NCBI RefSeq assembly: GCF_002087085.1 | Contig: NZ_MWQY01000026.1 | Coordinates: forward strand, 1 to 52,157 | Reading direction: 5' to 3' | DNA: 52,157 nt | Shown here: positions 1-40,936 of the stretch, piece after piece | Layout of the letters: each line of letters opens with the position of its first letter | Position numbering within the stretch: position 1 is the stretch's first letter | Position numbers and translations under genes: made by a program | Notes under the pieces: model-generated | What the model saw: only the letters and a program-made list of their open reading frames with translations | Told to the model about the DNA's origin: nothing | The model's database searches: none

Positions 1-110
1 CAGAAAAGCCTATCGACCGCCGCCTGTTCATGCATATCTATGTGCGTTCGCCCTGGCATCAGGCCATATTCCGGTTTTCATTACTCCCTCTGAAGCGTAT
101 ACTGACTGTC

Positions 111-917
111 ATGGAAAAACATATAGCAGTTGTTACCGGAGCGAGTTCCGGAATCGGCCGTGCCTTTGCCGAAGAGTATGCCCGCCGCGGCTATGATCTT
201 ATTCTGACCGGAAGACGTACCGGGGTGCTGGATTCCTTTTCCGCTGAGCTGAGGGAACGGTGGAATACCTCCGTGGAGACGGCGATATTCGATCTTTCCG
301 ACCCTGAGGAGCTTGAGCTTTTTGCCGGAAATATCGCTGCCAGACGCATCTCCGTGCTGGTCAACAATGCAGGTTTCGGCAGTCCCCGGGCCTTCAGTGT
401 CGATACCTACGAGAACCAGGTGCGGATGATCAAGGTGCACGTCGAGGCTGTGGTCCGACTGTGCCATGCCGTGCTTCCCGGAATGCGCGAAGAGGGAGAG
501 GGGACCATTATTAATGTATCGTCCCTGGCAAGCTTTTTTCCGGCCCCCCTGGACGCCCTTTACAGCGGTACCAAAGCCTTTCTGACCCGCTTTTCCGAGG
601 CCCTGCAGCTTGAACAGTCCGGTACCGGTATCCGTGTGCAGGCCCTCTGTCCCGGATTTATCCGTACGGAATTTCATGAGCGTCTTGGTCTTGGCAAGGA
701 GTTCAACCGAAAAAGTTCCGGAATCTTCCGCTGGATGGAACCGCAGCAGCTGGTCCGTGCCTCCCTCAAGGCCCTGAATCGCAGGAGACCCCCTGTTATT
801 GTCGTGCCGGGCCTCTTTTACCGCTTCCTCTACCTGATTCACAGACTCGTTCCCCGCAGTATTATCTACCGCAGCATGGACGGCCGCATGATGAACCGGG
901 TTGACGGAGGGGAATAG
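111..917 (+). CDS. Short-chain dehydrogenase/reductase (SDR)
   Basis: TGASSGIG Rossmann motif, NNAG, catalytic YSGTK; start moved to ATG 111 (MEKHIAVV). Confidence 0.9.
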   Translation: MEKHIAVVTGASSGIGRAFAEEYARRGYDLILTGRRTGVLDSFSAELRERWNTSVETAIFDLSDPEELELFAGNIAARRISVLVNNAGFGSPRAFSVDTYENQVRMIKVHVEAVVRLCHAVLPGMREEGEGTIINVSSLASFFPAPLDALYSGTKAFLTRFSEALQLEQSGTGIRVQALCPGFIRTEFHERLGLGKEFNRKSSGIFRWMEPQQLVRASLKALNRRRPPVIVVPGLFYRFLYLIHRLVPRSIIYRSMDGRMMNRVDGGE

Positions 918-938
918 GACCGCTGTTTCCTGCCCTCC

Positions 939-980
939 GTAACAAATGTTACTTACTGTATCAGGATTGCGCCGTACACT
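939..980 (+). promoter_or_regulatory. Crp/Fnr (HcpR-like) palindrome plus -10 box of the fprA promoter
   Basis: Perfect palindrome GTAAC-AAAT-GTTAC (939-952), 22 nt, then TACACT (975-980); class II activator geometry. Confidence 0.6.
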
Positions 981-1008
981 TGTACCTGTAGCCGGGGGCT
1001 GTGCAAGA

Positions 1009-1194
1009 CCGATGGCGACCGTACAAGAGTGAAGGGCCGGCTTTGCCGGTCCTGAACGAGGCAGAGCGGAGCTTGAGGACGATTTCGTCCGATGGCGACC
1101 GTACAGTACAAGAGTGAAGGGACGGCTTTGCCGGTCCCGAACGAGGCAGAGCGGAGCCGGAGGACGGTTTCGTCCGATGGCGACCGTACAAGAG
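1009..1194. repeat. Tandem structured repeat (80 bp + 85 bp + 21 bp partial unit) in the fprA leader
   Basis: ccgatggcgaccgtaca starts at 1009, 1089 and 1174; intervening segments nearly identical, each with two hairpins; unit 2 has a gtaca duplication. Confidence 0.9.
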
Positions 1195-1202
1195 GAGGAT
1201 GC

Positions 1203-2399
1203 ATGGAACGGAATATCAGGAACAATATTACCTGGGTGGGAAAGATCGACTGGGAGCTGACCAGATTTCATGGCGATGAGTATTCGACCCATCGCGGGAG
1301 TTCCTACAACTCCTATCTTATCCAGGAAGAGAAGACCGCGCTCATCGATACAGTCTGGGCTCCCTTTGCCCGGGAGTACGTGGACAACCTGGCAAAGGTA
1401 ATCGATCTGAACAAGATCGACTATGTAATCGCGAATCATGCCGAGGTGGACCACAGCGGAGCTCTGCCGGAGCTGATGGCAAGGATTCCGGATGTGCCGA
1501 TCTACTGTACCGCCAACGGGGTAAAGTCCCTGAAAGGGCATTACCACCAGGACTGGAACTTCGTGACCGTAAAAACCGGAGACACCCTGGATCTGGGAAA
1601 CGGCAAACAGCTCATTTTTATAGAGGCCCCCATGCTCCACTGGCCGGACAGCATGTTCTGCTATCTGACAGAAGATGCCGTACTCTTCAGCAATGACGCC
1701 TTCGGACAGCACTATGCATCGGAGTACCTGTTCAACGACCTGGTGGACCAGACGGAGCTTTATGAAGAGGCGATAAAGTATTATGCCAATATCCTGACCC
1801 CCTTCTCCGGTTTTGTTACCAAAAAGATCAACGAGGTTCTTGCTCTGAATGTTCCGGTGGAGATGATTGCCACAAGCCACGGGGTAATCTGGCGGGAGGA
1901 TCCCACCCAGATTGTAAAAAAATACCTGGAGTGGGCGGATTCCTATCAGGAAAACCGGATAGCACTTATCTACGACACCATGTGGAACGGGACCCGGCGT
2001 CTGGCCGAGGCGATTGCCGAGGGGATCCATGCCGCCGATGATACCGTGGACGTTCGTCTTTTCAATATGGCGGAGCGGGACAAGAACGATGTCATCACAG
2101 AAATATTCAAATCCAGGGCGGTGCTTCTGGGTTCCCCCACCATCAACAAGGGTATCCTTACGGCCATGGCATCCCTGATAGAAGAGGTAAAGGGCCTGAG
2201 GTTCAAAAACAAGAAGGCCGCCGCCTTCGGCTGTTACGGATGGAGCGGAGAGTCCGTGGGGATTCTGAACGAACAGCTGAAGGAAGCCGGTTTTGAGTTA
2301 ATCGGTGAGGGCGTAAAGGCTCTCTGGAATCCCGATGAGGAGAGTCTGAATGCTGCAAAGGAATACGGACGAAAGTTTGTGGCGGAGCTGGTAAGATAA
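1203..2399 (+). CDS. fprA: Flavodiiron protein (FprA/ROO family NO/O2 reductase)
   Basis: Metallo-beta-lactamase diiron motifs HAEVDH, HWPD, NDAFG, SHG plus C-terminal flavodoxin ([16 protein letters not shown]); AGGAGG at 1193-1198 before ATG 1203. Confidence 0.93.
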
Positions 2400-2444: not shown

Positions 2445-3182
2445 TTAATCCCGGGGTACCTGGCTTTTAATTTCGCCGTTTACCCAGATTCCCGAACGTT
2501 CCTCACCGGGACGGGAGGGTATGTCCATCACCATTCCCGGGTACATCAGGTCCCAGTTGTCAGGCTGGGGCAGCTTGTTCTTGTTGGCCTCGTAGAGAGG
2601 TTTCCAGGCGGAGGTGTCCCCGTATACGAAGGGGTATCCCGCAATGCGCCAGAAGCAGTCTTCTGCACCGGGGAGTTTCCGTACCAGGTATGCAGCAGGG
2701 AGTCCCGATTTCGAGGGTTCCTCTTTCGGTTCCTGGGGCTGAACAGTTCTGGCCCCGCCGAAGGTTTCAAGCAGTGCTATGGCCTCACGGCTGCTCTCCG
2801 AACTCTGGCTGTAGGAACCGTTGTTGTAGAGTTCACCGGCGGCTTCGATGAATCCCACGGCTTTGGCAAAATCAGCCGGGTTCTCCCTGGATCTTCCCGA
2901 GCGCTCCACCTGCCCCCGAAGACCGACTGCCCTCTGCAGGAGCTGATTCGCACGGTACTGGGCAAGCATGCGGGCCACGTATTCATCCGATTTTTGCGCA
3001 TACTCCGCTGAAAGCTCGGCGTATTCCCTGGCCTTCAGGTATTCTCCGTCTTCCAGGGCTTCCTCGGAAAGCTGTTTGTAGCGCAGGGACTCGCGGTAGT
3101 CGGGGTTATCCCGCAGACTCTGGGCGGACACGGCAGAAACAGAGAGGACAAGTACCAGAATGAAGATTATTCCGTGTTTCAT
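2445..3182 (-). CDS. Secreted TmpB-like protein with C-terminal LysM-like domain
   Basis: Signal peptide, helical body, C-terminal YLVR...DCFWRIAGYPFVYGD...W..LYEAN...PDNWDLMYPGMVMDIP typical of spirochaete LysM-like/TmpB proteins. Confidence 0.7.
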   Translation of the reverse strand: MKHGIIFILVLVLSVSAVSAQSLRDNPDYRESLRYKQLSEEALEDGEYLKAREYAELSAEYAQKSDEYVARMLAQYRANQLLQRAVGLRGQVERSGRSRENPADFAKAVGFIEAAGELYNNGSYSQSSESSREAIALLETFGGARTVQPQEPKEEPSKSGLPAAYLVRKLPGAEDCFWRIAGYPFVYGDTSAWKPLYEANKNKLPQPDNWDLMYPGMVMDIPSRPGEERSGIWVNGEIKSQVPRD

Positions 3183-3598
3183 TATTCCTCCTCCTCCAGG
3201 CCTGCTTCCCTGCGGGCTTCTGCTGCGTTCTGTTCAACAGTGCTGAGGGCGCTCTGGGCCTTCTCCAGGGCTTCGATAGCCGCTTCTCTGTTGGCTTTCG
3301 CCTCTTCGAAGGCGGCACGATAGGTCTGTTCCGCTTCTTCGTATTTTTCTTTAGCCGTATCCCATTCTCTGCTCTGCTCAGCGCTCCGGGCTTCCGAGTA
3401 CAGCTCCTGTGCCTGGGCATAGGTTTCGGGGGCACCCTTTGCTGCTTTCAGGGAATCCGCCTGTGCCTTGGCGTCTTCCACCCTCTGCCTGAAAGCGCTG
3501 AGGTCGACAGTCTCCACCTGGGTCGGCTCCGGTTCCGGCGCCGAAGCACAGGCTGCCAGCAGGGACACCATCAGTAATGCTGCTATGAGCTTTTTCAT
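3182..3598 (-). CDS. Helical lipoprotein (short TmpA-like)
   Basis: MKKLIAALLMVSLLAAC lipobox, Ala/Glu-rich coiled coil; TAATG stop/start overlap with downstream gene; start moved to 3598. Confidence 0.75.
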   Translation of the reverse strand: MKKLIAALLMVSLLAACASAPEPEPTQVETVDLSAFRQRVEDAKAQADSLKAAKGAPETYAQAQELYSEARSAEQSREWDTAKEKYEEAEQTYRAAFEEAKANREAAIEALEKAQSALSTVEQNAAEARREAGLEEEE

Positions 3599-3661
3599 AA
3601 TTCCATCCTCATTTTTTCTCTTCTTATAATAGACTACCCCCTTATGAGGGGAAAATGCAAG

Positions 3662-3696
3662 AAAAAACCCGTTTCCGGGCTCACGGAAACGGGTTT
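3662..3696 (-). terminator. Intrinsic terminator of rubrerythrin
   Basis: aaacccgtttccg-ggctca-cggaaacgggttt stem with T-run on minus strand. Confidence 0.8.
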
Positions 3697-3717
3697 GTAC
3701 AGAATTTCCAGGCTCTT

Positions 3718-4239
3718 TTAGATATCGAGATTGGCCGGCTCGTAGTACTCCCTGGGGTGTTTGCAGCAGGGACATTTTGCAGGCGGCTCGGTGCCTTCGT
3801 AGATATAGCCGCATACGCCGCATTTCCAGGCAATCGGGGTCTCCCGCTTGTATACAGTGTTGTTTTTTACCATTTCCAGCAGCCGGTCGTAGCGGTCCCG
3901 GTGATGGGCTTCAACCTTTGCGATCTGGCTGAAGAGGGTTGCAGCTTCTTTATTGCCTTCTGCTTCCGCCTCTTTTGCGAAGGTCGGGTACATGTCGCTG
4001 GTTTCGTAGTCTTCTCCGTCCCGGGCGTCCTTCAGGTTGGATGCTGTGTCTCCCAGGTGCCCCGCAAGCTTGAACTGGTCCTTTGCGTGGCGCATTTCGT
4101 TGTCGGCGGTCTCTTCAAAAATCCTGGCGATATAGTGATATCCCTCCTTTCGTGCCACCTGGGCATAGAAGGTATACTTGTTTCTTGCCTGTGATTCTCC
4201 GGCAAAAGCCGCCATCAGGTTCTCTTGAGTCTTTCCCAT
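3718..4239 (-). CDS. rbr: Rubrerythrin
   Basis: AFAGESQARNKY, ExxH diiron motifs, C-terminal rubredoxin-like CGVC...CPCC. Confidence 0.93.
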   Translation of the reverse strand: MGKTQENLMAAFAGESQARNKYTFYAQVARKEGYHYIARIFEETADNEMRHAKDQFKLAGHLGDTASNLKDARDGEDYETSDMYPTFAKEAEAEGNKEAATLFSQIAKVEAHHRDRYDRLLEMVKNNTVYKRETPIAWKCGVCGYIYEGTEPPAKCPCCKHPREYYEPANLDI

Positions 4240-10512: not shown

Positions 10513-11046
10513 TTACGGGACTTCCTTATCCAGGCGGATAAGAGTGTCCCGTTCCGCCTCGGTGGGAAAAAGATAGTACATCGACATCAGCGAGAGAAGC
10601 ACCAGGAAGTAGACATCCAGCCTGCTGCCCCCGGAAAGAATAAAAAGGACGAAGCCCAGAACCGCACACATTTCGCACATGGCCGAAGGGGGAATCAGCA
10701 GGGCAACGGCGGAAGACCGCCGGGCACGGTGATGATTCTGGTAGATAAGCCATTTTAAAAAAGAAAGCATGATCCCGGGCTCGGGTTTCCTGATTGTTTT
10801 TTTCCACAAAAAGGCCAGCACAATCAGCCCTGCGGACAAAAGATAGACCACGGACCGGAATATCGAATAATTTGCGGCAGTCAAAAGAGGTGTAAGCGCG
10901 ACCCGGATCAGTCCCGACAGCAGCAATTCAGCCACCAGGAGGAAAATAATCGCCGTCACCGGCTGGATTGAAGCCACAAGGCGGCTGATTTTGTATTCAC
11001 CCTCGTAATCCCGGTTTTCGTAACTCATGCTGCTCCTCTTGATCAA
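10513..11046 (-). CDS. Hypothetical membrane protein (about 4 TM)
   Basis: Hydrophobic ORF filling the gap; start 11046 or 11028. Confidence 0.6.
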   Translation of the reverse strand: MIKRSSMSYENRDYEGEYKISRLVASIQPVTAIIFLLVAELLLSGLIRVALTPLLTAANYSIFRSVVYLLSAGLIVLAFLWKKTIRKPEPGIMLSFLKWLIYQNHHRARRSSAVALLIPPSAMCEMCAVLGFVLFILSGGSRLDVYFLVLLSLMSMYYLFPTEAERDTLIRLDKEVP

Positions 11047-11073
11047 TCCTGATATCAGTCCATACTATGGTGT

Positions 11074-11107
11074 ATCCCGGTCTTTCTGCAACAGCAGAGA
11101 CCGGGAT
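11074..11107. terminator. Stem-loop after the Cys-rich mini-gene (possible terminator or RNA stabiliser)
   Basis: atcccggtc...tctgc-aaca-gcaga-gaccgggat; no clear U-tract. Confidence 0.45.
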
Positions 11108-11111
11108 GTTG

Positions 11112-11354
11112 TCAGTACCCGACCCCTGCGTTCATAACGCTCTCCGGGTCAAAGGCGTGGCAGGGGGTTACTCCGTGGACCGAGCCGCATTGGGTGCAGC
11201 TGGCCTCGAAGGTCTCCATTTCAAACTCCTTACCGCACTGTCCGCATTTTACCTGCAGCGGTACCGGCATGAACTGGGAGGAGAATCCCATCATGCGTAC
11301 CTTGTCTACTATCTGCCGTCCTGTTTCAAAGCTTCCGGAACATCCTTCGTGCAT
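11112..11354 (-). CDS. Small Cys/His-rich metal-binding protein (zinc-ribbon-like)
   Basis: 80 aa; MHEGC, CGQC, CTQC, TPCH; last gene of the operon. Confidence 0.8.
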   Translation of the reverse strand: MHEGCSGSFETGRQIVDKVRMMGFSSQFMPVPLQVKCGQCGKEFEMETFEASCTQCGSVHGVTPCHAFDPESVMNAGVGY

Positions 11355-11365
11355 TGCTCTTTCCT

Positions 11366-12388
11366 TTATATGGTAATCTGGTCCAGGCGTTTACCCGCCC
11401 GGAGTTCGCCCCGGAGGGTTTGAATCCTCCTGTCCAGGGCCTCTATCTCGTGCAGTATTCCCCGTTCGCCATCGCTGGTTTCGATGATCGAGGCGATACC
11501 GCCGTTCCTGATGATGATCCTCTTGTCGGCCATCAGGGCCAGGATGGGGTCGTGGGTCGCCATCAGGACGATCTTCTCCTCCGACAGCAGCAGCTCCAGG
11601 GCCTTTTTCCGGTCGATCCCGGCGTTTTCGATCTCGTCGATCAATACGATGGGAGACTTGCTCAGGATCGCGGTATCGGCGATCATCAGGGCCCGGGACT
11701 GTCCGCCGGAGAGGGAGGTGATGGGGGTCTCAGGGCTGAACTGTTCCCCCGCCAGCTCGTTTGCCCTGGCGATGATCTTCTCCGTTACCTCGTCGGTGTT
11801 CTCTATGAGTCTGCTCTCCGCGTGGAGGGTAACGAACTCCCGGACCGTCAGGTCCATTACAAAGTTCATGTTCTGACTGAGCTGTGCCACCAGCTTGTCG
11901 GAGGTGGAAAAACGCCACTTTTTATCCGGCTCAGTACCGTTGACCAGGACCTGTCTGCCCGTCGGCGTGTCCCGCTGGGCCATCCACTCGATGTCCGCCA
12001 GAAGACGGCTTTTTCCCGAGCCCGTGGGGCCGACTATGGAGACAATCTCTCCCGGCCGTATTTCCAGGGCCTCGAAACCCTCGGGTTCTCCGCTCTTGGT
12101 GGTCCCCGGCAGAATGCTTACGCTCCGGACACGGGTCCCGCTGTTCAGGCCCAGGAACTCCAGCATCTGTTCTATGTAGGCCCTGGCGCCGGATACGGTT
12201 TCATCGACGTCGATGGCCTTGTCTTCCCTGAACTCATCTTCCAGGGAGTGGAGGTACTCCTTTAAGGGGAGCTGTTCCCTGGGAGAGTACTCCAGCCCCG
12301 CGGAGGAAAAGTAGGAGTCTATAAAGGGGTATTCTTCGAGAAGTGCCGCTACCGGCAGGGTCTCGATGTCGCGCTTAATTTTGCTCAT
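11366..12388 (-). CDS. Soluble ABC-type ATPase with extra N-terminal domain
   Basis: Walker A GPTGSGKS, LSGGQ, Walker B IVLIDE, ATHD; about 80-aa N-terminal extension; start moved to 12388. Confidence 0.88.
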   Translation of the reverse strand: MSKIKRDIETLPVAALLEEYPFIDSYFSSAGLEYSPREQLPLKEYLHSLEDEFREDKAIDVDETVSGARAYIEQMLEFLGLNSGTRVRSVSILPGTTKSGEPEGFEALEIRPGEIVSIVGPTGSGKSRLLADIEWMAQRDTPTGRQVLVNGTEPDKKWRFSTSDKLVAQLSQNMNFVMDLTVREFVTLHAESRLIENTDEVTEKIIARANELAGEQFSPETPITSLSGGQSRALMIADTAILSKSPIVLIDEIENAGIDRKKALELLLSEEKIVLMATHDPILALMADKRIIIRNGGIASIIETSDGERGILHEIEALDRRIQTLRGELRAGKRLDQITI

Positions 12389-13082
12389 GCTGGTTCTCCA
12401 GTTTGATTTTCCGTACGTTTCCCATCTGGAACTGTTCGCCAATGCGCGTCTCTCCCAGGCAGTAGGAACAGAGGGCCGAGGGCATGGGAAAGCGCAATTC
12501 CTTCCCCTTGACGGAATCGATCTCGTTGTCGCTGTCGTGCATAAGGGTGCTCAGTTCGAAGGCCCCCTGTCCGGTGAGGCCGTTTACATGGATAATCGTC
12601 GCCCGGGGATTCACCATGCCCACGCGGCTGGCGAAGACCTCCCGCTCGGCCTGGGAGACGATATCCCCCTTGGTAATGACCACGATGTCTGCGCTCTTGA
12701 GCATGGGACCGATCTTTTTGGGGGTGTTGATGCCGCTCAGGTTGTCGATCACGCAGATCGCCCGGATCTCCTTGATGTAGGGGGAACAGCGGTTGCAGAG
12801 CCCGGCTGATTCGCTGATCAGGATGTCCAGACCCTCACGGATTCCCCACTGGGTAACCTCTTCGATGTTACTGACGAAGTAGTGGTCCGGACAGAGGCTG
12901 CCGGATAACCCCTTTTGCACGGGAATTCCCGCCTTCGCGTAGAGCTGATCATCCTCGGTTGAGAGGCAGTCGAATTTGGCAACGCCGATCTTGAAGCCCT
13001 TCCGCCTGAGGGATTCGGCGGTCTTGAGGATGACCGCTGTTTTTCCCGATGACGGGGGGCCGGAAACGGTTATCAGGTTCAT
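12375..13082 (-). CDS. Cys-rich G3E-type GTPase (HypB/UreG/CobW-like)
   Basis: SGPPSSGKT, LCPDH, ESAGLCNRC, TKGD, C-terminal CSYC; start moved to 13082. Confidence 0.85.
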   Translation of the reverse strand: MNLITVSGPPSSGKTAVILKTAESLRRKGFKIGVAKFDCLSTEDDQLYAKAGIPVQKGLSGSLCPDHYFVSNIEEVTQWGIREGLDILISESAGLCNRCSPYIKEIRAICVIDNLSGINTPKKIGPMLKSADIVVITKGDIVSQAEREVFASRVGMVNPRATIIHVNGLTGQGAFELSTLMHDSDNEIDSVKGKELRFPMPSALCSYCLGETRIGEQFQMGNVRKIKLENQHEQN

Positions 13083-14332
13083 GCGCTCTCCTCCGTCATG
13101 GCAGCCAGGCTGCTGGTCCGGTTGAAGATTTCTTCGCTTACAGCGATCTCCCGGCTCAGGTCGTGGGATTTGATGTAGTCCCAGCCCAGCCACATGAAGG
13201 GGGTTCCCTCAGCCAGCCGGTTGTCGACATCCGGGTTCAGGGAGGGGAAGAGTCCCTGGTGGGCCAGGACCTCGCCGATCTTTTGGGATCCGAAGAAGTC
13301 GACCACCGGTTTGAGATCCTTCTCCTTGCCCCGTTTGCTGAGCATGAAGATGGGGCTTACAATGGCTCCGTCCTCGGGCCAGACCGCCTGCATGGGCCCG
13401 CCTTCCCGCACGGTTTTGGTAAAGAAGTAAGGCATGATGGTGACCGCGGGCCGGGCGTTCTTCATGCGGTCGCTCTTGACCATCTGGGAGGGGTGCAGGG
13501 CCTGGAGCATGACACGGCCGAGCTCCTCCACCCCGGCATCGCCGTAGCGGCTGCGGAGGGTGAGCAGAATGGCGTTAAAGAGGTCGAAATCTCCCACCGG
13601 CAGGGAGACGGACTGACCGAAGTCGCCGCTCAGGAGTTCCTTCCAGCTCCGCGGTACAGGACGTCCCGCAAGCTCCTGGGTGTTTACCAGGAATACCGCC
13701 GGGACCGCGGCGATTATGGAGTAGACACCTGCGGGATCCTTAAGGTCGAGGCCGGCGAAGGCGGGATTCTCGCCCTTCCAGTCCAGCAGGTCCGTAAAGG
13801 CGTTCTGCTCCCGGAGGCGTCCGATGCGCTGGCGGTCGAAGAAGAGGTCGAAGCCGGCGGAGATAAAGATATCCGGCAGGGACTCGATGGAGGTGGAACT
13901 GTCGATGTGTTCCTCCACCCACTGGGTGCCCACGCTGGCGGCCTTCAGTTCCGCCTCGATTGCCCTGCCATGCTGCCTCCGGTAGGCGCTGCTGAAGTTG
14001 TTGAACTCCTCGAGGATGGGAATCCGCACCGGGCAGGGGAGGAGTCCGGTCATGCTGACCGACTCTTCCTGCCCGTTCTGCGGCGTCCCGCTCAGGCTAA
14101 GGTCAGCTCCGTCACGGTGCTCAGCGATCGCCTCGTTCAGGAGACTAACGAAGAGCTCTGAATTGATTTTCCGTATCTCCAGGGCCGTTTTCAGGGAGAC
14201 CAGCTTGCCGTATCCGGCGCGCTGAGAATATTCGGCCATCCGGGGAAAGCCCCGGGCAACGAAGATATCCACGGTTTCGGGATATTTTTCCGTGATGGTG
14301 TAGATGGTATCGTTTATATCAATGTAGTTCAT
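13079..14332 (-). CDS. Cytoplasmic solute-binding-fold protein with N-terminal DUF1858-like domain
   Basis: N-term IYTITEKYPETVDIFVARGF...SLKTAL; LLPCPVRIP; PRSWKELL and VWPEDGAIVSPIF (Fe/polyamine SBP-like); no signal peptide. Confidence 0.75.
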   Translation of the reverse strand: MNYIDINDTIYTITEKYPETVDIFVARGFPRMAEYSQRAGYGKLVSLKTALEIRKINSELFVSLLNEAIAEHRDGADLSLSGTPQNGQEESVSMTGLLPCPVRIPILEEFNNFSSAYRRQHGRAIEAELKAASVGTQWVEEHIDSSTSIESLPDIFISAGFDLFFDRQRIGRLREQNAFTDLLDWKGENPAFAGLDLKDPAGVYSIIAAVPAVFLVNTQELAGRPVPRSWKELLSGDFGQSVSLPVGDFDLFNAILLTLRSRYGDAGVEELGRVMLQALHPSQMVKSDRMKNARPAVTIMPYFFTKTVREGGPMQAVWPEDGAIVSPIFMLSKRGKEKDLKPVVDFFGSQKIGEVLAHQGLFPSLNPDVDNRLAEGTPFMWLGWDYIKSHDLSREIAVSEEIFNRTSSLAAMTEESA

Positions 14333-14358: not shown

Positions 14359-14400
14359 ACAGTAATATAATACAGAAGAGACTTCGGTAACATAGGATAC
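14359..14400 (-). promoter_or_regulatory. Second HcpR-like palindrome plus -10 box
   Basis: Minus strand GTATC-CTAT-GTTAC (14400-14387), 22 nt, TACTGT (14364-14359). Confidence 0.55.
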
Positions 14401-14502: not shown

Positions 14503-14841
14503 ATGAAACTGATGGTTTTTGTCTTGAACCGCGAAGAACTCCTGGAACAGGTGCTGGAGGCTTATGCCGAGGTGGGAATACCCGGGGGAACGATCCTGGA
14601 TTCCGAAGGGATGGGACGCTTTCTTACCTACGAGGTCCCCCTGTTTGCCGGCTTCAAGGAGTTCATGAAGGGGAACAAGCCCTACAATAAAACGATTTTT
14701 TCCGTCATCCGGGACGAAAGCCTGATTCCCAGGTTTCACAAGCTGCTGACGGAGGTCTGCGGGGATCTGCGTGATCCCGGCACCGGTATTCTGTTTACTG
14801 TCCCGGTCGACTGGGCCGCAGGACTGGCGGAGGAGGAGTAA
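14503..14841 (+). CDS. PII/GlnB-like regulatory protein
   Basis: 112 aa; GIPGGTILDSEGMG, C-terminal PGTGILFTVPV. Confidence 0.7.
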   Translation: MKLMVFVLNREELLEQVLEAYAEVGIPGGTILDSEGMGRFLTYEVPLFAGFKEFMKGNKPYNKTIFSVIRDESLIPRFHKLLTEVCGDLRDPGTGILFTVPVDWAAGLAEEE

Positions 14842-15305
14842 TGGCAATAAATATTAGCGAACTGCTGAATCCGGCCTGTATCGAACTGGATCTCTCGGCG
14901 AAAAAGAAACCCGATATCCTGCGGGAGCTCAGCTCCGTGCTGGCCCGCTGCGGGGACGTGGGGAACCAGGACAAGCTCTACAAGGAGCTTCTAAAGCGGG
15001 AAAAGATGACCAGTACCGGAATCGGGAGCGGCATCGCCATTCCCCACTGCCTCTCGTCCCAGGTAAAGGAGATGCACGTCGCCTTCGGGCGCAAACTCGA
15101 AGGCGCCAAATTCGACGCTGTGGACAATCAGCCGGTCAGCCTCTTTTTTCTGCTTGCAGGTCCGGAGGGCGCCCATTCCAGGCATCTCCAGATACTGAGC
15201 AGACTGGCCCGCTACCTTCACGATCCGGCCTTCTGTCAGGAGCTTCATACCGCCTCGTCCCCTGAGGAGGTCATTGCCGCTTTCAGGCGCAAGGAATCGG
15301 AATGA
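14841..15305 (+). CDS. PTS EIIA domain protein (Ntr/fructose type)
   Basis: REKMTSTGIGSGIAIPH phospho-His motif, HLQILSRLAR; TAATG overlap with upstream gene. Confidence 0.9.
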   Translation: MAINISELLNPACIELDLSAKKKPDILRELSSVLARCGDVGNQDKLYKELLKREKMTSTGIGSGIAIPHCLSSQVKEMHVAFGRKLEGAKFDAVDNQPVSLFFLLAGPEGAHSRHLQILSRLARYLHDPAFCQELHTASSPEEVIAAFRRKESE

Positions 15306-15814
15306 GACTCGAGACCCGCTGGGCCCTTGTCAGGTTTCTCATTACCTTTCTGTCCCTTTTCCCGGGCTGGATGCTGTTTACCTGGTCTCTGGATCCCGGT
15401 TCTCTCGTGGCGGGAATTGTATCCAGCCTGGTGGTGGCCTGGTTTACCTATTCCATCTTCGTGGACGAGTCCGAAGCCGCCCGCAGGGCCCATCTTCCGC
15501 GGCCGCACTACTTTATCGTCTACCTGGTTGTCCTGGTTTTCAACATGTATGTGGCAAGCTTCCAGGTCCTCTGGCAGATCCTCCGGGGAAAGATCAACCC
15601 CGGGATCGTACATTTCCGGACAAGGCTGAAAACCGACATAGCCAGAGTCGCCCTGACCAGCTCCATTACCCTGACCCCGGGCACCATAACCCTGGATCTG
15701 ACGGACGACCACCTGGTCGTGCACTGGCTCGATGCACGGACAACCCACTCCCGCTATGCCGGTGAGCTGATCAAGGGCATCTACGAAAAACTCCTGAGAC
15801 GCATATGGCTCTGA
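15302..15814 (+). CDS. mnhE: Mrp/Mnh antiporter subunit E
   Basis: INPGIV...SITLTPGTITLD. Confidence 0.9.
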   Translation: MRLETRWALVRFLITFLSLFPGWMLFTWSLDPGSLVAGIVSSLVVAWFTYSIFVDESEAARRAHLPRPHYFIVYLVVLVFNMYVASFQVLWQILRGKINPGIVHFRTRLKTDIARVALTSSITLTPGTITLDLTDDHLVVHWLDARTTHSRYAGELIKGIYEKLLRRIWL

Positions 15815-17316: not shown

Positions 17317-17654
17317 TGGTCTGGTTTCTTATCGGCGCAATCTTTCTCGTCGGTCTCTGGGGCATCATGAACAAGGCGAACATGATCAAAAAGGTAATGG
17401 CCCTGAGTATTGCCAACAGTGCTGTCATTCTGCTCTTTATCTATTACGGCTCCTTTTCCGGTGATACAGCGCCCATCGAGGGAACTTCGGCCCGGATGGT
17501 GGACCCCCTGCCGCAGGCTCTGATGCTGACGGCAATAGTGGTCGGAATCTGCGTGGTAGCCCTGGCCCTGGTCCTGGTCTACCGCTTATATCTTAAGTTC
17601 GGGACTCTGGATATGCGGCGAATAGAAAAGAAGGCCTGGGAACTGCATGACTGA
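17316..17654 (+). CDS. mnhC: Mrp/Mnh antiporter subunit C
   Basis: APIE...DPLPQALMLTAIVV. Confidence 0.9.
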   Translation: MVWFLIGAIFLVGLWGIMNKANMIKKVMALSIANSAVILLFIYYGSFSGDTAPIEGTSARMVDPLPQALMLTAIVVGICVVALALVLVYRLYLKFGTLDMRRIEKKAWELHD

Positions 17655-19314
17655 AAACCTGATAATCTGGATCCTTGTTTCTCCCCTTTTCGGCGGGGCC
17701 CTGGCTCTTTTCGGAAAGATCTTCAAAAGAGCGGAAGGATTTTTCTGTCTGCTTTCTGTTCTCAGTTTTGCGGGACCGATCTTTTCTCTGCTGCATCTGC
17801 TGGAACCGGTGGCCGGAGGGGCCGCTCTGTTCTACCCCCTGGGGGGCTGGGCGGAGCCCTATGGTATCAGTCTGGTGCTGGACGGTTTTGCCTGGATTTC
17901 CGCGGCCCTTATCAGCCTGATTACACCCCTGATCGCCCTCTTTGCCCTGGGAAACAGAAAATACGGAGCCCGTTTCTTCTTCTTTTTAATGCTTCTTTCC
18001 GGCGGTATGTACGGGGTCGCCCTGACGGGGGACCTCTTTACCATGTTCGTGGGCTTCGAGATCATCGCTATTTCCGCCTATGTGCTGATAGCCTGGGAGG
18101 GTACCCCAACGGGTCTGGTGGCGAGTTTCAAGTACCTGATGCTCAGTACCACGGGGATCCTCTTTTTTCTGTTCGGCATATTCCTGATCTACCGGGACCT
18201 GGGGGTCCTCTCCATAGACAGAATCTCGACCCTGCTCCAGAGCGCCGGCGGGGTTCGGAACACCCCTACCATGCACCTTGCCCTGGCCTCCCTTTGTGTG
18301 GGAATCGGGGTGCGAACTGCCTTTATCCCTTTTCATACCTGGCTTCCCGAGGCCCATGCCTATGCGCCCCATCCGGTATCGGCCCTGCTTTCCGGGGTGC
18401 TTATAAAGGTCTCCTTTTTCGCCATGGTTCGGATCCTTCTGGAATTCGGCGGTTCCTATATGTGGGAGCTGCTTCTCTGGATCGGGGCTGTTACCGCCAT
18501 CAGCGCCGTTGTTAGTGCGCTGGCCCAGAGCGATGCCAAGCGCCTTCTGGCTTACCACTCCATATCCCAGATGGGATACATCCTGGCTGTCTTCGGTGCG
18601 GGATCCTCCTTTGCCCTCAGCGCCTCGTTTTTCCATGCCCTGAACCATGCTCTTTTCAAGAGCCTTCTTTTTCTTACCGTCGGGACCGCGGTGGGCTTAA
18701 GGGGGGTACGGAACCTCTATAAAATTTCGGCCCTGGGCCGCAGGATTCCCCTTTTCGGGCTGGCCTTTTTTGTGGGGGCTCTTTCGATATCAGGAATTCC
18801 CCCTTTTAACGGCTTCGCCAGCAAAGCCTATATATCCTCCGGAATGAGCGGGTCACCGGCTTATGTGCTTCTATGGATAACCAGTTTTCTTACCATCGCA
18901 AGCTTTGTCAAACTCAGCAGGATCTACTTTCCCGGACCAAAGGAGCCGTTCCCCGCGGTCCAGCCGGATACGGTACTGGTTCGGGATTATCTTCCCGGCA
19001 AACTGGAGCATCTGGTGGTCATTGTGCTGGCCCTTCTCTGTCTGGGAAGCGGGGTCTTTGGCGTCCAGGTGGCCGGTTTCCTGAATGTTATGCTCTATCA
19101 TGAGGAGTTGAGTTACACAGTATCCCTCTTCGGCTGGAAAAAGATGCTCTCCCTGCTGCCGGCGGTAATTCTGGGTTTCGCGGCCTTTCGTCTGGTGACA
19201 ACTTCATGGGGAAAAGGCCTCTCCGCCCGGCTCAAGGCGCTTGCCCCGGACCTGCATACGGTGCTGATTTTCTTTTTTATCGGTCTTCTTGCCTTTGCGG
19301 CGGTGGCTTACTGA
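17647..19314 (+). CDS. mnhD: Mrp/Mnh antiporter subunit D (proton-conducting membrane subunit)
   Basis: GGWAEPYGI, DLFTMFVGFE, WLPEAHAYAP, KRLLAYHSISQMG, NHALFKSLLFL, GIPPFNGFASK. Confidence 0.88.
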   Translation: MTENLIIWILVSPLFGGALALFGKIFKRAEGFFCLLSVLSFAGPIFSLLHLLEPVAGGAALFYPLGGWAEPYGISLVLDGFAWISAALISLITPLIALFALGNRKYGARFFFFLMLLSGGMYGVALTGDLFTMFVGFEIIAISAYVLIAWEGTPTGLVASFKYLMLSTTGILFFLFGIFLIYRDLGVLSIDRISTLLQSAGGVRNTPTMHLALASLCVGIGVRTAFIPFHTWLPEAHAYAPHPVSALLSGVLIKVSFFAMVRILLEFGGSYMWELLLWIGAVTAISAVVSALAQSDAKRLLAYHSISQMGYILAVFGAGSSFALSASFFHALNHALFKSLLFLTVGTAVGLRGVRNLYKISALGRRIPLFGLAFFVGALSISGIPPFNGFASKAYISSGMSGSPAYVLLWITSFLTIASFVKLSRIYFPGPKEPFPAVQPDTVLVRDYLPGKLEHLVVIVLALLCLGSGVFGVQVAGFLNVMLYHEELSYTVSLFGWKKMLSLLPAVILGFAAFRLVTTSWGKGLSARLKALAPDLHTVLIFFFIGLLAFAAVAY

Positions 19315-27124: not shown

Positions 27125-28123
27125 ATGAGAAAAACAATCGTTGCTGTTCTGTGTGTCCTGTTACTGACTGCCGGGCTATTCGCCGAAGGCAGGCAGGAGG
27201 GGGCAGCGGAAACCTACAAAATTACCGCTGGTCTTGGTTTGAATGACAAGTCGGCAGCCTATGAAGCCATGGTGTATTTTAAAGAACTTGTGGAAGAAGG
27301 CAGCGACGGACGTATCGTAATGGAAATTTACCATTCAAGTCAGCTTGGAGACGACCGGGAGATGATGGAAGCCCTGCAGCGGGGAGAACAGGAGATGACT
27401 GTCCCTTCAACCGCTCCGATTGTCCCCTTTGTTCCGGAGTTCGGTGTCTTTGATCTCCCCTTTTTGTTTCCTAAACACGAAGATGCAGACCGGGTTCTAG
27501 ATGGCGAAATTGGACAGAGGATTCTGGACAAACTATCTGATGTCGGACTTAAAGGACTGGTTTATTGGGAGAATGGGTACCGAAATCTCACTAATAGTGT
27601 ACGTGAGGTGAGAACTCCCGCAGATGTTAAGGGTATGAAAGTCCGTACAATGGAAAACCCAATGCACCTGGATGCCTGGAGAACCATGGGGGCTAATCCT
27701 ACGCCCATGGCTTTCGGCGAGCTTTTCTCCGCCATGCAGCAGGGGGTTGTGGACGGCCAGGAAAATCCCTGGGGTACCATTTATCTTCAGAACTTTCATG
27801 AAGTCCAGACATTTGCGTCCGATACAGGTCATGTTTATTCACCCTTCGTTTTGATGATCAGCCAGAAGTACTGGGACAATCTTCCTGCCGATCTGCAGAA
27901 GGTTGTTATGGATGCAGCTGTTAAATCCCGGGATAAGAACCGTGAGCTTAATCGTAAATATAACAAAGAATATATGTCAAAACTAAAGGAAGTTATGACT
28001 GTTTCAGAACTGACTTTAGAAGAAAAAGCTCAGTTTCAAACTGCTGTTCAATCTGTTTATGACCAATATGCTGATGCAATCGGAAGGGGTTTGATCAACG
28101 AAGTGATGGAAGAACTTAAGTAA
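27125..28123 (+). CDS. dctP: TRAP transporter substrate-binding protein
   Basis: SQLGDDREMME, ENGYR, KGMKVRTM, GANPTPM, VDGQENP. Confidence 0.93.
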   Translation: MRKTIVAVLCVLLLTAGLFAEGRQEGAAETYKITAGLGLNDKSAAYEAMVYFKELVEEGSDGRIVMEIYHSSQLGDDREMMEALQRGEQEMTVPSTAPIVPFVPEFGVFDLPFLFPKHEDADRVLDGEIGQRILDKLSDVGLKGLVYWENGYRNLTNSVREVRTPADVKGMKVRTMENPMHLDAWRTMGANPTPMAFGELFSAMQQGVVDGQENPWGTIYLQNFHEVQTFASDTGHVYSPFVLMISQKYWDNLPADLQKVVMDAAVKSRDKNRELNRKYNKEYMSKLKEVMTVSELTLEEKAQFQTAVQSVYDQYADAIGRGLINEVMEELK

Positions 28124-28151
28124 GGGGCATTCTTAAAATAATGTAATTGGT

Positions 28152-28192
28152 CACCGGATCAAGGGCACATAATGTCAAGATCCGGTGGTTTT
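28152..28192 (+). terminator. Stem-loop between dctP and dctQ
   Basis: caccggatc...gatccggtg followed by gtttt. Confidence 0.5.
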
Positions 28193-28214
28193 AATCTATC
28201 AGAGGAGACATAAG

Positions 28215-28718
28215 ATGTTTTTCGGACGTTTCCAGGCAGCCCTTGAAAAGGCATATTCCATGTTTCTCATACTGTTAACATTAACAATGTTTATAATTGT
28301 TGCATTCAATGTTTTCATGCGCTTTGTGATGAATCAGTCCCTAGGCTGGGCGGATGAACTGGCGCGTTTCATTTTCATCTGGATAGGTTTTCTTGGGGCT
28401 GTACTAGCATATAAAAACGATGAACATGTTGGGCTTAGTTTTTTGATTGATGCCATACAGTCCTCCAGGGGGAAGCGCATCATTAGCGTTATACAGCAGA
28501 TCCTTAGCCTCGTAGTGCTGTTGTTTATTACCTATTTCGGGTACCAGGCTTCAACCACTGTCATGAATGTATCTCCAGCATTATCCATCCCCATGTCCTT
28601 AATGTATCTCATTGTACCTTTTTGTGGAGGTATGATGTGTTTGCTTGGAATTGGAAAGCTCATCGCGATTTTCCGGGGGGCGGAAATACAGACTAATATC
28701 AGGAATTCGGTGGAGTAA
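28215..28718 (+). CDS. dctQ: TRAP small permease
   Basis: WADELARFIFIW, EHVGL, SPALSIPM; start moved to 28215. Confidence 0.9.
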   Translation: MFFGRFQAALEKAYSMFLILLTLTMFIIVAFNVFMRFVMNQSLGWADELARFIFIWIGFLGAVLAYKNDEHVGLSFLIDAIQSSRGKRIISVIQQILSLVVLLFITYFGYQASTTVMNVSPALSIPMSLMYLIVPFCGGMMCLLGIGKLIAIFRGAEIQTNIRNSVE

Positions 28719-28721
28719 TGT

Positions 28722-30002
28722 ATGTTGTGGATTTTCCTCTTTTTTCTATTTTCCTCAGTTATTCTTGGACTTCCTATTGTTTTTGCACTCGGTATAGCCA
28801 ACATAGTCATGTTGCAATTGTTAGATCTTCCATTCACTATTATTGCAAGTAAGATGATATCGGGAATGAACAGTTTTCCACTCCTCGCGATCCCATTTTT
28901 TATGTTCGTTGGGGAGGTAATGAGTCGTGGTGGTATAGCTCGCAGACTTGTCAAACTGGCAGATGCTTTTGTTGGACACATTACAGGGGGGCTTGGTCAT
29001 GTAAATATTCTTGCCAGCATGTTCTTTGGCGGTATAAGTGGATCAGCAATTGCTGATACGGCTGCTATTGGAGGCTTGATGGTTCCGCCTATGGTACAAC
29101 AGAAATACACACCATCATATTCCGCTGCAGTTACCGCAAGTTCTGCGGTAATTGGCATAATAATTCCCCCCAGTATTCCTTTTATTTTATACGGAATAGT
29201 AACAAGTACATCAATAGCAAGGCTTTTTCTGGGTGGTATAGTTCCAGGTCTTATCGTCGGTTTTGCTCTGATGGTAACTACCTATATTACAAGCAGTCGT
29301 TATGGTTATGGGAAAAGAGAGAAAGGCAAGTCTTTTTCCCTAAAGGAGGTCTGGTCTGCATTTCAGGCAGTTTGGCCGGCTCTGACTCTACCGGTGATCA
29401 TTGTAGGCGGTATTCTCGGTGGAATATTTACTGCAACCGAAGCTGGGGCAGTAGCAGCTTTTGTTGCACTTCTTCTTAGTCTCTTCTATTACCGTGAAAT
29501 TCAGATTAAAGATCTTCCCGGAATATTTCTATCTACTGCCAAGACAACTGCAATTGTTCTGTTTCTCAGTGCAATGGCCATGGTTTCTGCCTGGCTGTTG
29601 ACAAGGGCAAGAGTCCCGGTTGCTTTATCAAATCTTCTGACAGCTATTACAGAATCTAAACTGCTTATTCTTCTATTTTGTAACATGCTTTTATTCCTTG
29701 TTGGCTTTGTCATGGATTTGACACCTGCAATTCTTATCCTTGCACCCATACTCACACCTTTAATGATGAATATCGGAATCGATCCGGTTTACTTTGGGGT
29801 AATAATGTGTATTAACCTTGGGATTGGGTTAGTTACACCACCAGTGGGAACTGTTTTGTATGTGGCATGCGGTGTTGCAGATGTGAGAATGGAGGGTTTG
29901 GTAAAGTCTCTTCTTCCGTTTTTGTTTACTCTGCTTGTAGTTCTGTTATTACTTATTCTTTTTCCAGAATTGGTCATGTTCATTCCCAACTATTTCAGCT
30001 AA
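28722..30002 (+). CDS. dctM: TRAP large permease
   Basis: LLAIPFF, FGGISGSAIAD, IIPPSI, FTATEAG, GLVTPPVG. Confidence 0.93.
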   Translation: MLWIFLFFLFSSVILGLPIVFALGIANIVMLQLLDLPFTIIASKMISGMNSFPLLAIPFFMFVGEVMSRGGIARRLVKLADAFVGHITGGLGHVNILASMFFGGISGSAIADTAAIGGLMVPPMVQQKYTPSYSAAVTASSAVIGIIIPPSIPFILYGIVTSTSIARLFLGGIVPGLIVGFALMVTTYITSSRYGYGKREKGKSFSLKEVWSAFQAVWPALTLPVIIVGGILGGIFTATEAGAVAAFVALLLSLFYYREIQIKDLPGIFLSTAKTTAIVLFLSAMAMVSAWLLTRARVPVALSNLLTAITESKLLILLFCNMLLFLVGFVMDLTPAILILAPILTPLMMNIGIDPVYFGVIMCINLGIGLVTPPVGTVLYVACGVADVRMEGLVKSLLPFLFTLLVVLLLLILFPELVMFIPNYFS

Positions 30003-30054
30003 ATCAGTAATGGATCTGAAAAAAAATCATATATATTGAAGGAAAGGTGAAAAT

Positions 30055-31122: not shown

Positions 31123-31178
31123 AAGTATATTTATTCGACAGTGAGTTTGCGTTACTTTATCCAGGGGGATCAGGGTTC

Positions 31179-40654: not shown

Positions 40655-40936
40655 ATGGAAAAGCGTTTGGGCGTCGTTTCTATTCTGCTTGAATCCAGAG
40701 ATTCCGTGCGGACCATGAACACGATCCTCTCCGACTTTGGCGAGTTAATCCTGGCTCGTCAGGGGCTTCCCCTGCGGCACAAGGGTATTCACGTCATATC
40801 TCTGGTTGTGGAAGGCACAACCGACGAGATAGGTGCGCTGACGGGAAAGCTTGGGCGTCTGGAAAAAGTCCAGGTAAAATCCGTTCTCACCAGGTATCGG
40901 GAGGACGATAGTGACGAAACTGAAGACAAAGCCTGA
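40655..40936 (+). CDS. TM1266-family putative [FeFe]-hydrogenase system regulator
   Basis: RLGVVSI...ILARQGLP...ISLVVEGTTDEIGALTGKLGRL..VQVKS; first gene of hyd operon. Confidence 0.88.
   Translation: MEKRLGVVSILLESRDSVRTMNTILSDFGELILARQGLPLRHKGIHVISLVVEGTTDEIGALTGKLGRLEKVQVKSVLTRYREDDSDETEDKA

Follow-up and report, generated by a model that had tools for sequence, protein, structure and literature searches.

A permease-less cassette of an SBP-fold protein, a G3E GTPase, an ABC ATPase and a zinc ribbon, linked to the hybrid cluster protein: a candidate module for metal-centre hand-off or repair

The subject of this study is a four-gene cassette at positions 11112-14332 of a 52,157-nt stretch of contig NZ_MWQY01000026.1 (NCBI RefSeq assembly GCF_002087085.1, forward strand), hereafter the window, which comes from a genome of 4.2 Mb that is 97% complete. 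The cassette encodes, in this order, a protein with a substrate-binding protein (SBP) fold, a G3E GTPase, an ATP-binding cassette (ABC) ATPase and a zinc-ribbon mini-protein. Our preferred reading, to which we would give a probability of a little under 60%, is that these proteins form a soluble, GTP- and ATP-driven module for the hand-off or repair of metal centres, which belongs to a nitrosative-stress regulon and probably works with the hybrid cluster protein, Hcp. The module would work in the manner of a HypA/HypB-type metallochaperone to which a soluble ABC ATPase and an SBP fold inside the cell have been added, and it lies outside the orthologous groups of HypB, UreG and HypA. The gene structure, its conservation, the absence of a permease, the regulatory and genomic linkage to hcp and the fusion of the GTPase with the ABC ATPase are all established observations.

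The earlier note on this DNA, made from the letters alone, had described four tightly packed or overlapping genes in this interval: an SBP-fold protein with no signal peptide, a DUF1858-like N-terminal domain and a CPVRIP cysteine; a G3E GTPase with CPDH, CNRC and CSYC cysteine sets; a complete ABC ATPase with an extra N-terminal domain; and an 80-aa CxxC/CxxC/CH protein. The open reading frames (ORFs), the junctions and the domains all proved to be as described. The four co-directional ORFs lie on the minus strand at the coordinates noted and overlap or abut. The stop codon of the SBP gene and the start codon of the GTPase gene share the letters ATGA (13079-13082), the likely ABC start ATG at 12388 overlaps the GTPase stop by 14 nt, and the mini-protein ATG is found 11 nt past the ABC stop, preceded by a ribosome-binding-like stretch, AGGAAAGAG. 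None of the four proteins has a transmembrane (TM)-like segment.

Scanning one genome per species yielded 452 homologous loci confirmed by tblastn, and the best 80 were fetched. As far as the contigs reach, the gene order SBP-GTPase-ABC-zinc ribbon is strictly syntenic in these 80 loci, an arrangement far beyond chance. Their labels span at least seven phyla (Desulfobacterota, Spirochaetota, Cloacimonadota, Fermentibacterota, Bacteroidota, Acidobacteriota/Aminicenantes and Clostridia). Sixty-nine of the 80 gave a match to the zinc ribbon, and four loci with room for it had none. Identity to the window proteins, leaving aside one locus at 99-100%, is 47-57% for the SBP-fold protein, 72-83% for the GTPase, 55-66% for the ABC ATPase (full-length matches) and 54-76% for the mini-protein. 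The locus left aside, L001, is a contig of 1320 bases filed under another phylum; it matches window 12640-13960 and possibly represents a mis-binned piece of DNA from this organism or one very close to it.

No permease lies within the cassette, and none consistently adjoins it in 79 homologous loci, in agreement with what had been read from the single locus. In 19 of the 79 loci a protein with at least four TM segments is encoded no more than three genes away from the cassette, and these proteins fall into many unrelated clusters, each from about five loci at most. The families themselves could still suggest a genuine ABC transporter, with its permease encoded elsewhere and the SBP-fold protein at the membrane: SBP_bac_6 and ABC_tran are transporter families, the fold of the ABC ATPase matches importer and exporter domains, and 66 nt downstream of the cassette in the window there is an ORF with four TM-like segments. 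However, the SBP-fold protein shows neither a signal peptide nor a lipobox and carries a folded domain of cytoplasmic type, DUF1858, at its N-terminus, and in 86 of 91 long homologues the fusion partner of the ABC ATPase is the GTPase and not a membrane domain. The downstream ORF (10513-11046, minus strand, 177 aa), which is partly covered by RNA-library contigs and has no Pfam or NCBIfam match, was rejected as the missing permease: it gave one weak match in the 80 loci, on the opposite strand and displaced by 7 kb. Three findings had been named beforehand as telling against a non-transport role, namely a consistently linked permease, this ORF acting as one, and a signal peptide on the SBP-fold protein, and none of them was found. 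We therefore regard the transporter reading as very unlikely.

G3E GTPases such as HypB, UreG and CobW are metallochaperones, and soluble ABC ATPases, for example SufC, drive cofactor assembly. The GTPase of the cassette is a member of the former group by its Pfam match (cobW, PF02492, 47.5 bits against a cut-off of 20.7) and by its motifs, having a Walker A, a Cys/His motif between Walker A and Walker B, ExxG and [NT]KxD. Across 30 aligned sequences the motifs GPPSSGKT, CPDH, ESAG (within ESAGLCNRC) and TKGD are invariant, and a phmmer alignment to UreG structures places CPDH on the UreG CPH, ESAG on Walker B and TKGD on NKxD. Seven cysteines and one histidine are conserved in these sequences. 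Six of the cysteines are invariant, lying in C64-P-D-H67, C96-N-R-C99, C110 and C205-S-Y-C208 together with the histidine, and C39 is kept in 90%. The mean column identity of 84% is unusually high for proteins from different phyla. The GTPase is not an orthologue of HypB or UreG by the NCBIfam equivalog models, on which it scores 48.8 against a cut-off of 121.2 (TIGR00073) and 33.5 against 204.2 (TIGR00101).

The ABC ATPase (ABC_tran, PF00005, 63.6 bits) is complete, with invariant Walker A, LSGGQ, Walker B and H-loop histidine. Its start is likely the ATG at 12388, which gives a product as long as its homologues. An additional N-terminal stretch of about 85 residues is helical in a structural model with a predicted local distance difference test (pLDDT) score of 86.6, with helices at 13-19, 23-29, 42-48, 51-56 and 61-79, a pattern that resembles the N-terminal domain of the SBP-fold protein. 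Homology of this domain to DUF1858 is weakly suggested by profile comparison: hhalign gave E=0.12 and a probability of 0.5%, though over the expected 25 residues, and one of six such N-terminal domains matched DUF1858, below the cut-off, at E=5e-4. Foldseek searches with the ABC model returned only generic nucleotide-binding domains of importers and exporters, with the entry 9h78 of the SMS complex among many. The database label 'macrolide export ATP-binding/permease protein MacB' borne by homologues is probably misleading.

Homologues of the GTPase are also found as part of longer proteins, 91 of them at E≤1e-20, and 86 of these 91 combine cobW with ABC_tran. Most of the fusions are 505-532 aa long and some about 600-640 aa; by the names given in their sources they come from Clostridium beijerinckii, C. 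saccharoperbutylacetonicum, C. puniceum, Anaerocolumna, Lachnospiraceae and Puniceicoccales. For example, in the fusion P0137, residues 1-233 correspond to the GTPase (65% identity) and residues 239-498 to ABC residues 69-336 (57% identity). As aligned, the GTPase in these fusions stands where the N-terminal helical domain of the ABC ATPase would be. Because the two proteins are naturally fused, they can be placed in one complex on Rosetta-stone evidence. Two apparent fusions of the SBP-fold protein with the GTPase, P0013 (652 aa) and P0182 (572 aa), were rejected as frameshift read-throughs in which the C-terminus of the SBP is replaced by out-of-frame residues. P0182 represents a divergent form of the cassette from a high-G+C organism; its SBP has no DUF1858 domain but keeps IPCPV (25% identity) and is followed by a GTPase of 62% identity.

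The wealth of cysteines in the GTPase raises an alternative, namely a nucleotide-gated iron-sulphur (Fe-S) electron-transfer or reductive-activation system, in which a GTPase dimer with a bridging Fe-S cluster, acting in the manner of NifH or Mrp/NBP35, would pass low-potential electrons or a whole cluster to over-oxidised or nitrosylated Hcp, with the ABC ATPase and the SBP-fold protein serving as clamp and adaptor. The seven conserved cysteines, with CNRC directly after Walker B and CSYC towards the C-terminus, exceed the single Cys/His site that aligns with UreG. The linkage to hcp and to nitric oxide (NO) regulators described below fits such a system equally well, and the Fe-S-loaded, SufC-like complex 9h78 is among the ABC fold matches, as one generic domain of many. 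However, the GTPase matches HypB and UreG and no family of NifH, Mrp/NBP35 or activase type, across the 80 loci the operon contains no conserved ferredoxin or reductase gene, and the HypA-like mini-protein would be left unexplained. We consider this alternative unlikely.

The mini-protein forms a family of its own, with about 74 representatives. In 66 aligned sequences MH[DE]GC, KVRxMGF, CxxC, CPxC and TPCH are conserved, amounting to six cysteines and two histidines; H2, G4 and C5 each occur in 95% or more of them, position 3 is D or E, and the first cysteine pair is shortened in some sequences. The likeness to HypA lies below cut-off (PF01155, 24.7 against 28.9, over the zinc-ribbon part only; TIGR00100, 16.1 against 88.1). 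The N-terminal MHE of HypA is a nickel-binding motif.

In the SBP-fold protein, Pfam identifies DUF1858 at residues 4-62 (40.3 bits against a cut-off of 32.2) and SBP_bac_6 (PF13343) at residues 151-390 (245.8 bits, covering model positions 2-245 of 245), and no NCBIfam model matches. According to the earlier note, DUF1858 proteins are associated with loci of the hybrid cluster protein. The first 45 residues contain no hydrophobic stretch, the maximal 12-residue Kyte-Doolittle mean being 0.64. The AlphaFold2 (AF2) model (pLDDT 83.6) instead starts with a folded helical domain (helices 10-16, 20-26, 30-44, 47-53 and 58-78), followed by a long linker helix and a two-lobe domain. With neither signal peptide nor lipobox, and with DUF1858 at its N-terminus, the protein is cytoplasmic. 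More than 2,500 homologues were detected at E≤1e-3, and all of those listed combine DUF1858 with SBP_bac_6; their database label 'iron ABC transporter substrate-binding protein' is probably misleading. C100, in LLPCPVRIP, is the sole cysteine of the protein and is invariant across 51 sequences; H280 and Y302 of the two-lobe domain are likewise invariant. In the model Cys100 is located where the first strand of the N-lobe ends and its first helix starts, a position that may correspond to that of an iron ligand in FbpA.

Foldseek against the PDB placed the SBP model with FbpA/FutA/HitA, AfuA, P5PA and PotD at a probability of 1.00, with target-normalised TM scores of 0.56-0.71 and identities of 9-16%; PDB sequences searched with the family profile gave no match at E≤0.01. 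These structures allow for a cytoplasmic module that binds or senses a small molecule and involves no metal centre, the NTPases regulating release of the ligand or signalling its presence. The ligand might then be a phosphorylated sugar, pyridoxal phosphate (PLP), a polyamine or nitrite/hydroxylamine, as the closest structures include P5PA (PLP), AfuA (sugar phosphate) and PotD (polyamine) besides the ferric-binding proteins, and the conserved residues lining the cleft are mostly acidic and aromatic. However, the invariant Cys and His residues that the GTPase and the mini-protein each possess, the G3E ancestry and the linkage to Hcp and an Fe-S-type Rrf2 regulator would all be unaccounted for, and none of the four proteins has an output domain (DNA-binding, kinase or cyclase) by Pfam or NCBIfam. 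A role of this kind seems to us distinctly improbable.

Three-chain predictions of the ABC ATPase, the GTPase and the SBP-fold protein, run with their own alignments and with the SBP as the scored partner, gave ipSAE values of 0.53, 0.55 and 0.54, against 0.00 for the best of three controls; the control in which the ABC chain was replaced while the SBP and the GTPase were kept scored 0.00. Contact agreement between the runs was at least 45% and partner pLDDT at least 76. When the tool was calibrated, 116 of 157 solved complexes attained the mark, as did 2 of 215 mismatched pairs; at values of 0.60 or less it was attained by only 18 of the 157, together with both of the passing mismatches, counts that are only roughly valid for three-chain jobs with their own alignments. 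The predictions thus offer a hint, with weak support, that the SBP fold may dock on the ABC ATPase in an ABC-dependent manner.

The tie to Hcp and to NO defence, which the earlier note had proposed, is upheld by three lines of evidence, the first of which is the gene neighbourhood. When the ORFs of the 80 loci were clustered, a Prismane/hybrid cluster protein of about 550 aa was found beside the cassette in 27 loci, mostly right after the mini-protein gene. An Rrf2 regulator with a cysteine cluster was a neighbour in 38 loci and a cupin in 22; in 5 loci of Clostridia the neighbours included a Crp/Fnr regulator. In the 42 loci whose flanks reach at least 2.5 kb on each side, hcp lies within 4 kb of the cassette in 18, Rrf2 in 23, and any of hcp, Rrf2 and Crp in 26.

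The second line is co-occurrence, for which 401 genomes from the phylum of the window were sampled. The GTPase (E≤1e-40) was present in 23 of them and a Prismane protein (E≤1e-30) in 166. Hcp was found in 19 of the 23 GTPase-positive genomes against 147 of the 378 GTPase-negative ones, counts that ignore kinship, 8 of the 23 belonging to one genus. The two genes are at most 4 kb apart in 9 of the 19 genomes that have both.

The third line concerns regulatory sites. The HcpR2 consensus is GTAACnnnnGTTAC (Rodionov et al. 2005, PMC1274295). Its sole perfect copy in the 4.2-Mb genome is at window 939-952, before the flavodiiron gene fprA (window 1092-2399; ODP/metallo-beta-lactamase and flavodoxin domains). 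The one Prismane-family gene of this genome, hcp, is divergent from a Crp/Fnr regulator gene and has a one-mismatch site, GTAACATATATTAC, upstream; the cassette has a candidate site, GTAACATAGGATAC, before the SBP gene. The chance of finding a site with at most one mismatch in a given 170-nt region was estimated at about 0.004 (87 sites in 4.2 Mb). Of 72 related loci, 8 have a site in the 250 nt preceding the operon head, a perfect copy in every case; three of them are GTAACATAGGTTAC, in the same place as GTAACATAGGATAC in the window and one letter off it. Site density in the related loci is 0.436 per kb at operon heads and 0.044 per kb in the remainder, a ten-fold difference. Of the HcpR2-pattern sites of this genome, of which about 13-15 are intergenic, we take only those of fprA, hcp and the cassette to be meaningful. 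Read in this way, the cassette is probably co-regulated with hcp and fprA in this genome, despite hcp not being adjacent, and the three probably make up a small NO regulon of HcpR type. Two long ORFs in these regions, window 81-2030 (minus strand) and 3019-3909 (plus strand) of the locus L081, are spurious or over-extended and run across real genes and intergenic regulatory sites. The Crp/Fnr gene beside hcp probably has its true start at an internal Met (MAEIPERAY...).

Taken together, the following observations weigh against a metal-centre module tied to Hcp. The HcpR2 pattern with at most one mismatch is not enriched genome-wide, occurring 87 times where its reversed control occurs 131 times; ten further intergenic sites stand before genes with no such connection (transketolase, a lectin-like protein, Ldh_2, ADH, LuxR, PfkB, a copper ATPase and others); and the candidate site of the window carries a mismatch. 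In the source genome hcp is on a different contig from the cassette, and 16 of the 42 well-flanked loci have no hcp, Rrf2 or Crp gene within 4 kb. Four of the 23 GTPase-positive genomes have no Hcp (G152, 99% complete; G397, 91% complete; G139 and G186), the GTPase matches in the last two being among the more distant. E. coli produces active Hcp without such a cassette. With regard to the proteins, the complex score is weak on the tool's own calibration, a generic ABC fold does not discriminate transport from non-transport ATPases, and metal binding by the cassette proteins is deduced from motifs. Finally, the nearest SBP structures, at identities of only 9-16%, bind ligands as different as PLP, sugar phosphates, Fe3+ and polyamines, and the fold does not single out a cargo.

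The four genomes without Hcp imply that the module cannot be strictly dedicated to that protein, and the best-supported position is a module functionally tied to Hcp without being strictly dedicated to it. A more specific proposal is a dedicated machine for assembly and repair of the hybrid [4Fe-2S-2O] cluster of Hcp, and perhaps of other NO-damaged iron centres, with the SBP docked on an ABC ATPase that is wired to the GTPase; this we put forward only tentatively, as a proposal that may well fail.

The nature of the metal can be approached through the clients that the genome offers. Searches of the genome, which is 97% complete, turned up neither a [NiFe]-hydrogenase large subunit (PF00374) nor a urease alpha subunit (PF00449) nor a second Prismane/carbon monoxide dehydrogenase (CODH) gene, which makes delivery of nickel to [NiFe]-hydrogenase, CODH or urease unlikely. 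The ScdA_N domain of RIC/YtfE was not found in the genome either, and a RIC-like repair role would thus be unfilled. The missing nickel clients, together with the context of Hcp and the Fe-S-type Rrf2 regulator, point to iron or an Fe-S fragment as the putative cargo.

These data also bear on a classical Ni, Co or Zn metallochaperone set, an analogue of HypA/HypB or COG0523, whose client would have nothing to do with NO defence and whose proximity to hcp would reflect regulatory coincidence or shared anaerobic expression. HypB and UreG are the best family matches of the GTPase, the mini-protein begins with MHE, the nickel-binding motif of HypA, and has the sub-threshold match to the HypA zinc ribbon, and the 16 well-flanked loci without hcp, Rrf2 and Crp neighbours would be expected. 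However, the HypB, UreG and HypA equivalog scores are far under their cut-offs, HcpR2-type sites are enriched ten-fold at the operon heads, no other candidate client gene is conserved beside the cassette in the 80 loci, and [NiFe]-hydrogenase, urease and CODH were not found (LarA, glyoxalase I and Ni-superoxide dismutase were not among the genes searched for). A set of this kind seems quite unlikely.

Under the preferred reading, that of a soluble hand-off or repair module, the cassette would be switched on by an HcpR2-type Crp/Fnr regulator here and by an Fe-S-type Rrf2 regulator elsewhere. The Cys-rich GTPase, presumably a dimer like HypB and UreG, and the HypA-like zinc ribbon would bind and relay a metal ion or a small Fe-S unit, and GTP hydrolysis would gate its release. 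The ABC ATPase, physically coupled to the GTPase, would provide ATP-driven clamp motions, and the FbpA/AfuA-like SBP protein would hold either the client or the cargo, the latter being iron or a ligand that contains iron or is anionic, docking on the ABC ATPase where a permease would otherwise sit. The client would most likely be the hybrid cluster of Hcp, NO-damaged or nascent, and possibly other iron centres such as that of the flavodiiron protein. The metal-loading or repair role suggested in the earlier note therefore stands in part: its non-transporter character and its tie to NO and Hcp hold, while for the metal or cluster involved, for assembly versus repair, and for the client (Hcp, FprA or another), as for the direction of transfer, we infer what is likely from the motifs and the genomic context.

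Comparison with known systems brings out both the kinship and the differences of the cassette. With HypA/HypB, which insert nickel into [NiFe]-hydrogenase, and UreG/UreE, which serve urease, it shares a G3E GTPase with Cys-Pro-(Asp)-His on the CPH of UreG, ExxG and [NT]KxD, and with HypA a small zinc ribbon starting MH(D/E). It differs from them in equivalog scores under the HypB and UreG cut-offs, in the extra invariant CNRC and CSYC of the GTPase, in being joined by an ABC ATPase and an SBP-fold protein, in its linkage to hcp and NO regulators, and in that no hydrogenase or urease client was found in the genome. SufC, in SufBCD, and the archaeal SMS complex likewise employ a membrane-free ABC ATPase on a cytoplasmic metal cofactor (the 9h78 fold match is generic), but the cassette has no SufB/SufD-like scaffold; its partners are an SBP fold and a G3E GTPase, and its ABC ATPase carries a DUF1858-like N-terminal domain or a fused GTPase. 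RIC/YtfE/ScdA, an NO-induced protein that repairs iron centres, resembles the SBP-fold protein in belonging to an NO regulon, in combining a small helical N-terminal domain with a metal-binding domain and in being proposed to act on NO-damaged Fe-S clusters; the ScdA_N and DUF1858 domains are akin. In the cassette, however, an SBP fold takes the place of the iron-binding hemerythrin domain, two NTPases and a zinc ribbon are added, and ScdA_N has no match in the SBP-fold protein.

The SBP-fold protein shares the two-lobe class II fold and full-length SBP_bac_6 with FbpA/FutA, AfuA, P5PA and PotD, but is cytoplasmic, has a DUF1858 N-terminus, is 9-16% identical to them and has no permease partner. 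Another analogy is the maturation of Ni-CODH by CooC/CooT/CooJ, where a P-loop NTPase and small metal-binding proteins, which insert a metal into a complex Fe-S cluster, are encoded beside an enzyme of the Prismane/CODH family; a Prismane neighbour was confirmed here, and the Ni-CODH family is homologous to Hcp. CooC, however, is a MinD-type ATPase whereas the cassette has a G3E GTPase, the client of the cassette would be a Ni-free hybrid cluster, and we know of no ABC or SBP components in Coo maturation.

The features of the locus are collected in Table 1. A consensus promoter and terminator scan gave nothing useful on the minus strand, and the inverted repeat that follows the zinc-ribbon gene was absent from its terminator output; this repeat has no T-run and is a possible candidate for the end of the operon. 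Near-identical contigs in two metatranscriptomic libraries cover pieces of all four cassette genes: library X18 gave 12374-12569, 12777-13013, 13088-13315 and 13929-14316 (0-8 differing letters per piece), and library X20 gave 11011-11217 and 11428-11647 (one differing letter each). Contigs of RNA libraries may stem from DNA and report presence, not strand, transcript ends or induction, and we take them as weak evidence that the cassette is transcribed.

Table 1. Features of the cassette and its flanks, in window coordinates
Feature	Position	Strand	Basis or detail
Candidate HcpR2-type palindromic site GTAACATAGGATAC	14387..14400		One mismatch to GTAACnnnnGTTAC; ends 55 nt before the SBP start codon
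Cytoplasmic SBP-fold protein, 417 aa	13079..14332	-	Pfam, AF2 model, Foldseek against PDB, conservation
G3E (HypB/UreG-like) GTPase, 235 aa	12375..13082	-	Pfam, motifs, UreG alignment; start read from the sequence
Soluble ABC ATPase, 340 aa	11366..12388	-	Pfam, motifs, structural model; alternative start TTG 12442
Zinc-ribbon protein, 80 aa	11112..11354	-	MHEGC, C37xxC40, C53xxC56, TPC65H66
Inverted repeat CCCGGTCT(14 nt)AGACCGGG	11076..11105	-	8-bp arms; begins 6 nt past the zinc-ribbon stop

Elsewhere in the window, a region divergent from the cassette (14503-15305, plus strand) encodes a protein of 112 aa whose P-II-like match is weak and falls below the cut-off (E=0.0017), and this gene overlaps by one base a gene for a phosphotransferase system (PTS) EIIA of the EIIA(Ntr)/fructose type. 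A multi-subunit cation/proton antiporter operon of Mrp/Mnh type follows (MNHE at 15302-15814, Proton_antipo_M at 17647-19314). Window 28001-32000 has a G+C content of 0.40-0.41 against about 0.55 elsewhere. This segment, in which genes for a TRAP transporter DctM protein (28722-30002) and a member of the URO-D family (30055-31122) are found, may be foreign DNA. At 40911-44663 two adjacent radical-SAM genes (469 aa with a BATS domain, and 351 aa) are followed by a Lyase_1-family gene, and the pair may be related to maturases of HydG/HydE type, which it resembles.

No description of the cassette was found in the full-text literature, a coverage that excludes subscription journals. In the accessible part of the study of HcpR regulons (PMC1274295) the words ABC and ATPase are absent, and in that of PMC8469502 the relevant terms are confined to the reference list. 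The system treated in PMC6344411, as far as its accessible text goes, consists of NitT/TauT transporters with a permease beside clade B CODH, and was set aside as different from the cassette.

The biology into which the cassette would fit has two gaps. To our knowledge, it is not known how the hybrid cluster of Hcp is built and maintained under nitrosative stress; nor do we know of any account of how NO-damaged iron centres are repaired in strict anaerobes that have no RIC/YtfE. As a widespread (452 confirmed loci) and extremely conserved cassette wired to Hcp and NO regulators, the four genes are a testable candidate for the upkeep of the hybrid cluster and other iron centres. If the proposed mechanism is true, this would be the first time that an SBP fold is seen to dock directly on a soluble ABC ATPase, itself hard-wired to a metallochaperone GTPase of the G3E family, and ATP and GTP hydrolysis would jointly drive cytoplasmic transfer of iron or Fe-S units, not transport across a membrane. 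Two paradigms would thereby be widened, with a G3E metallochaperone working together with an ABC ATPase and an intracellular SBP fold serving as partner of an ABC ATPase that has no permease.

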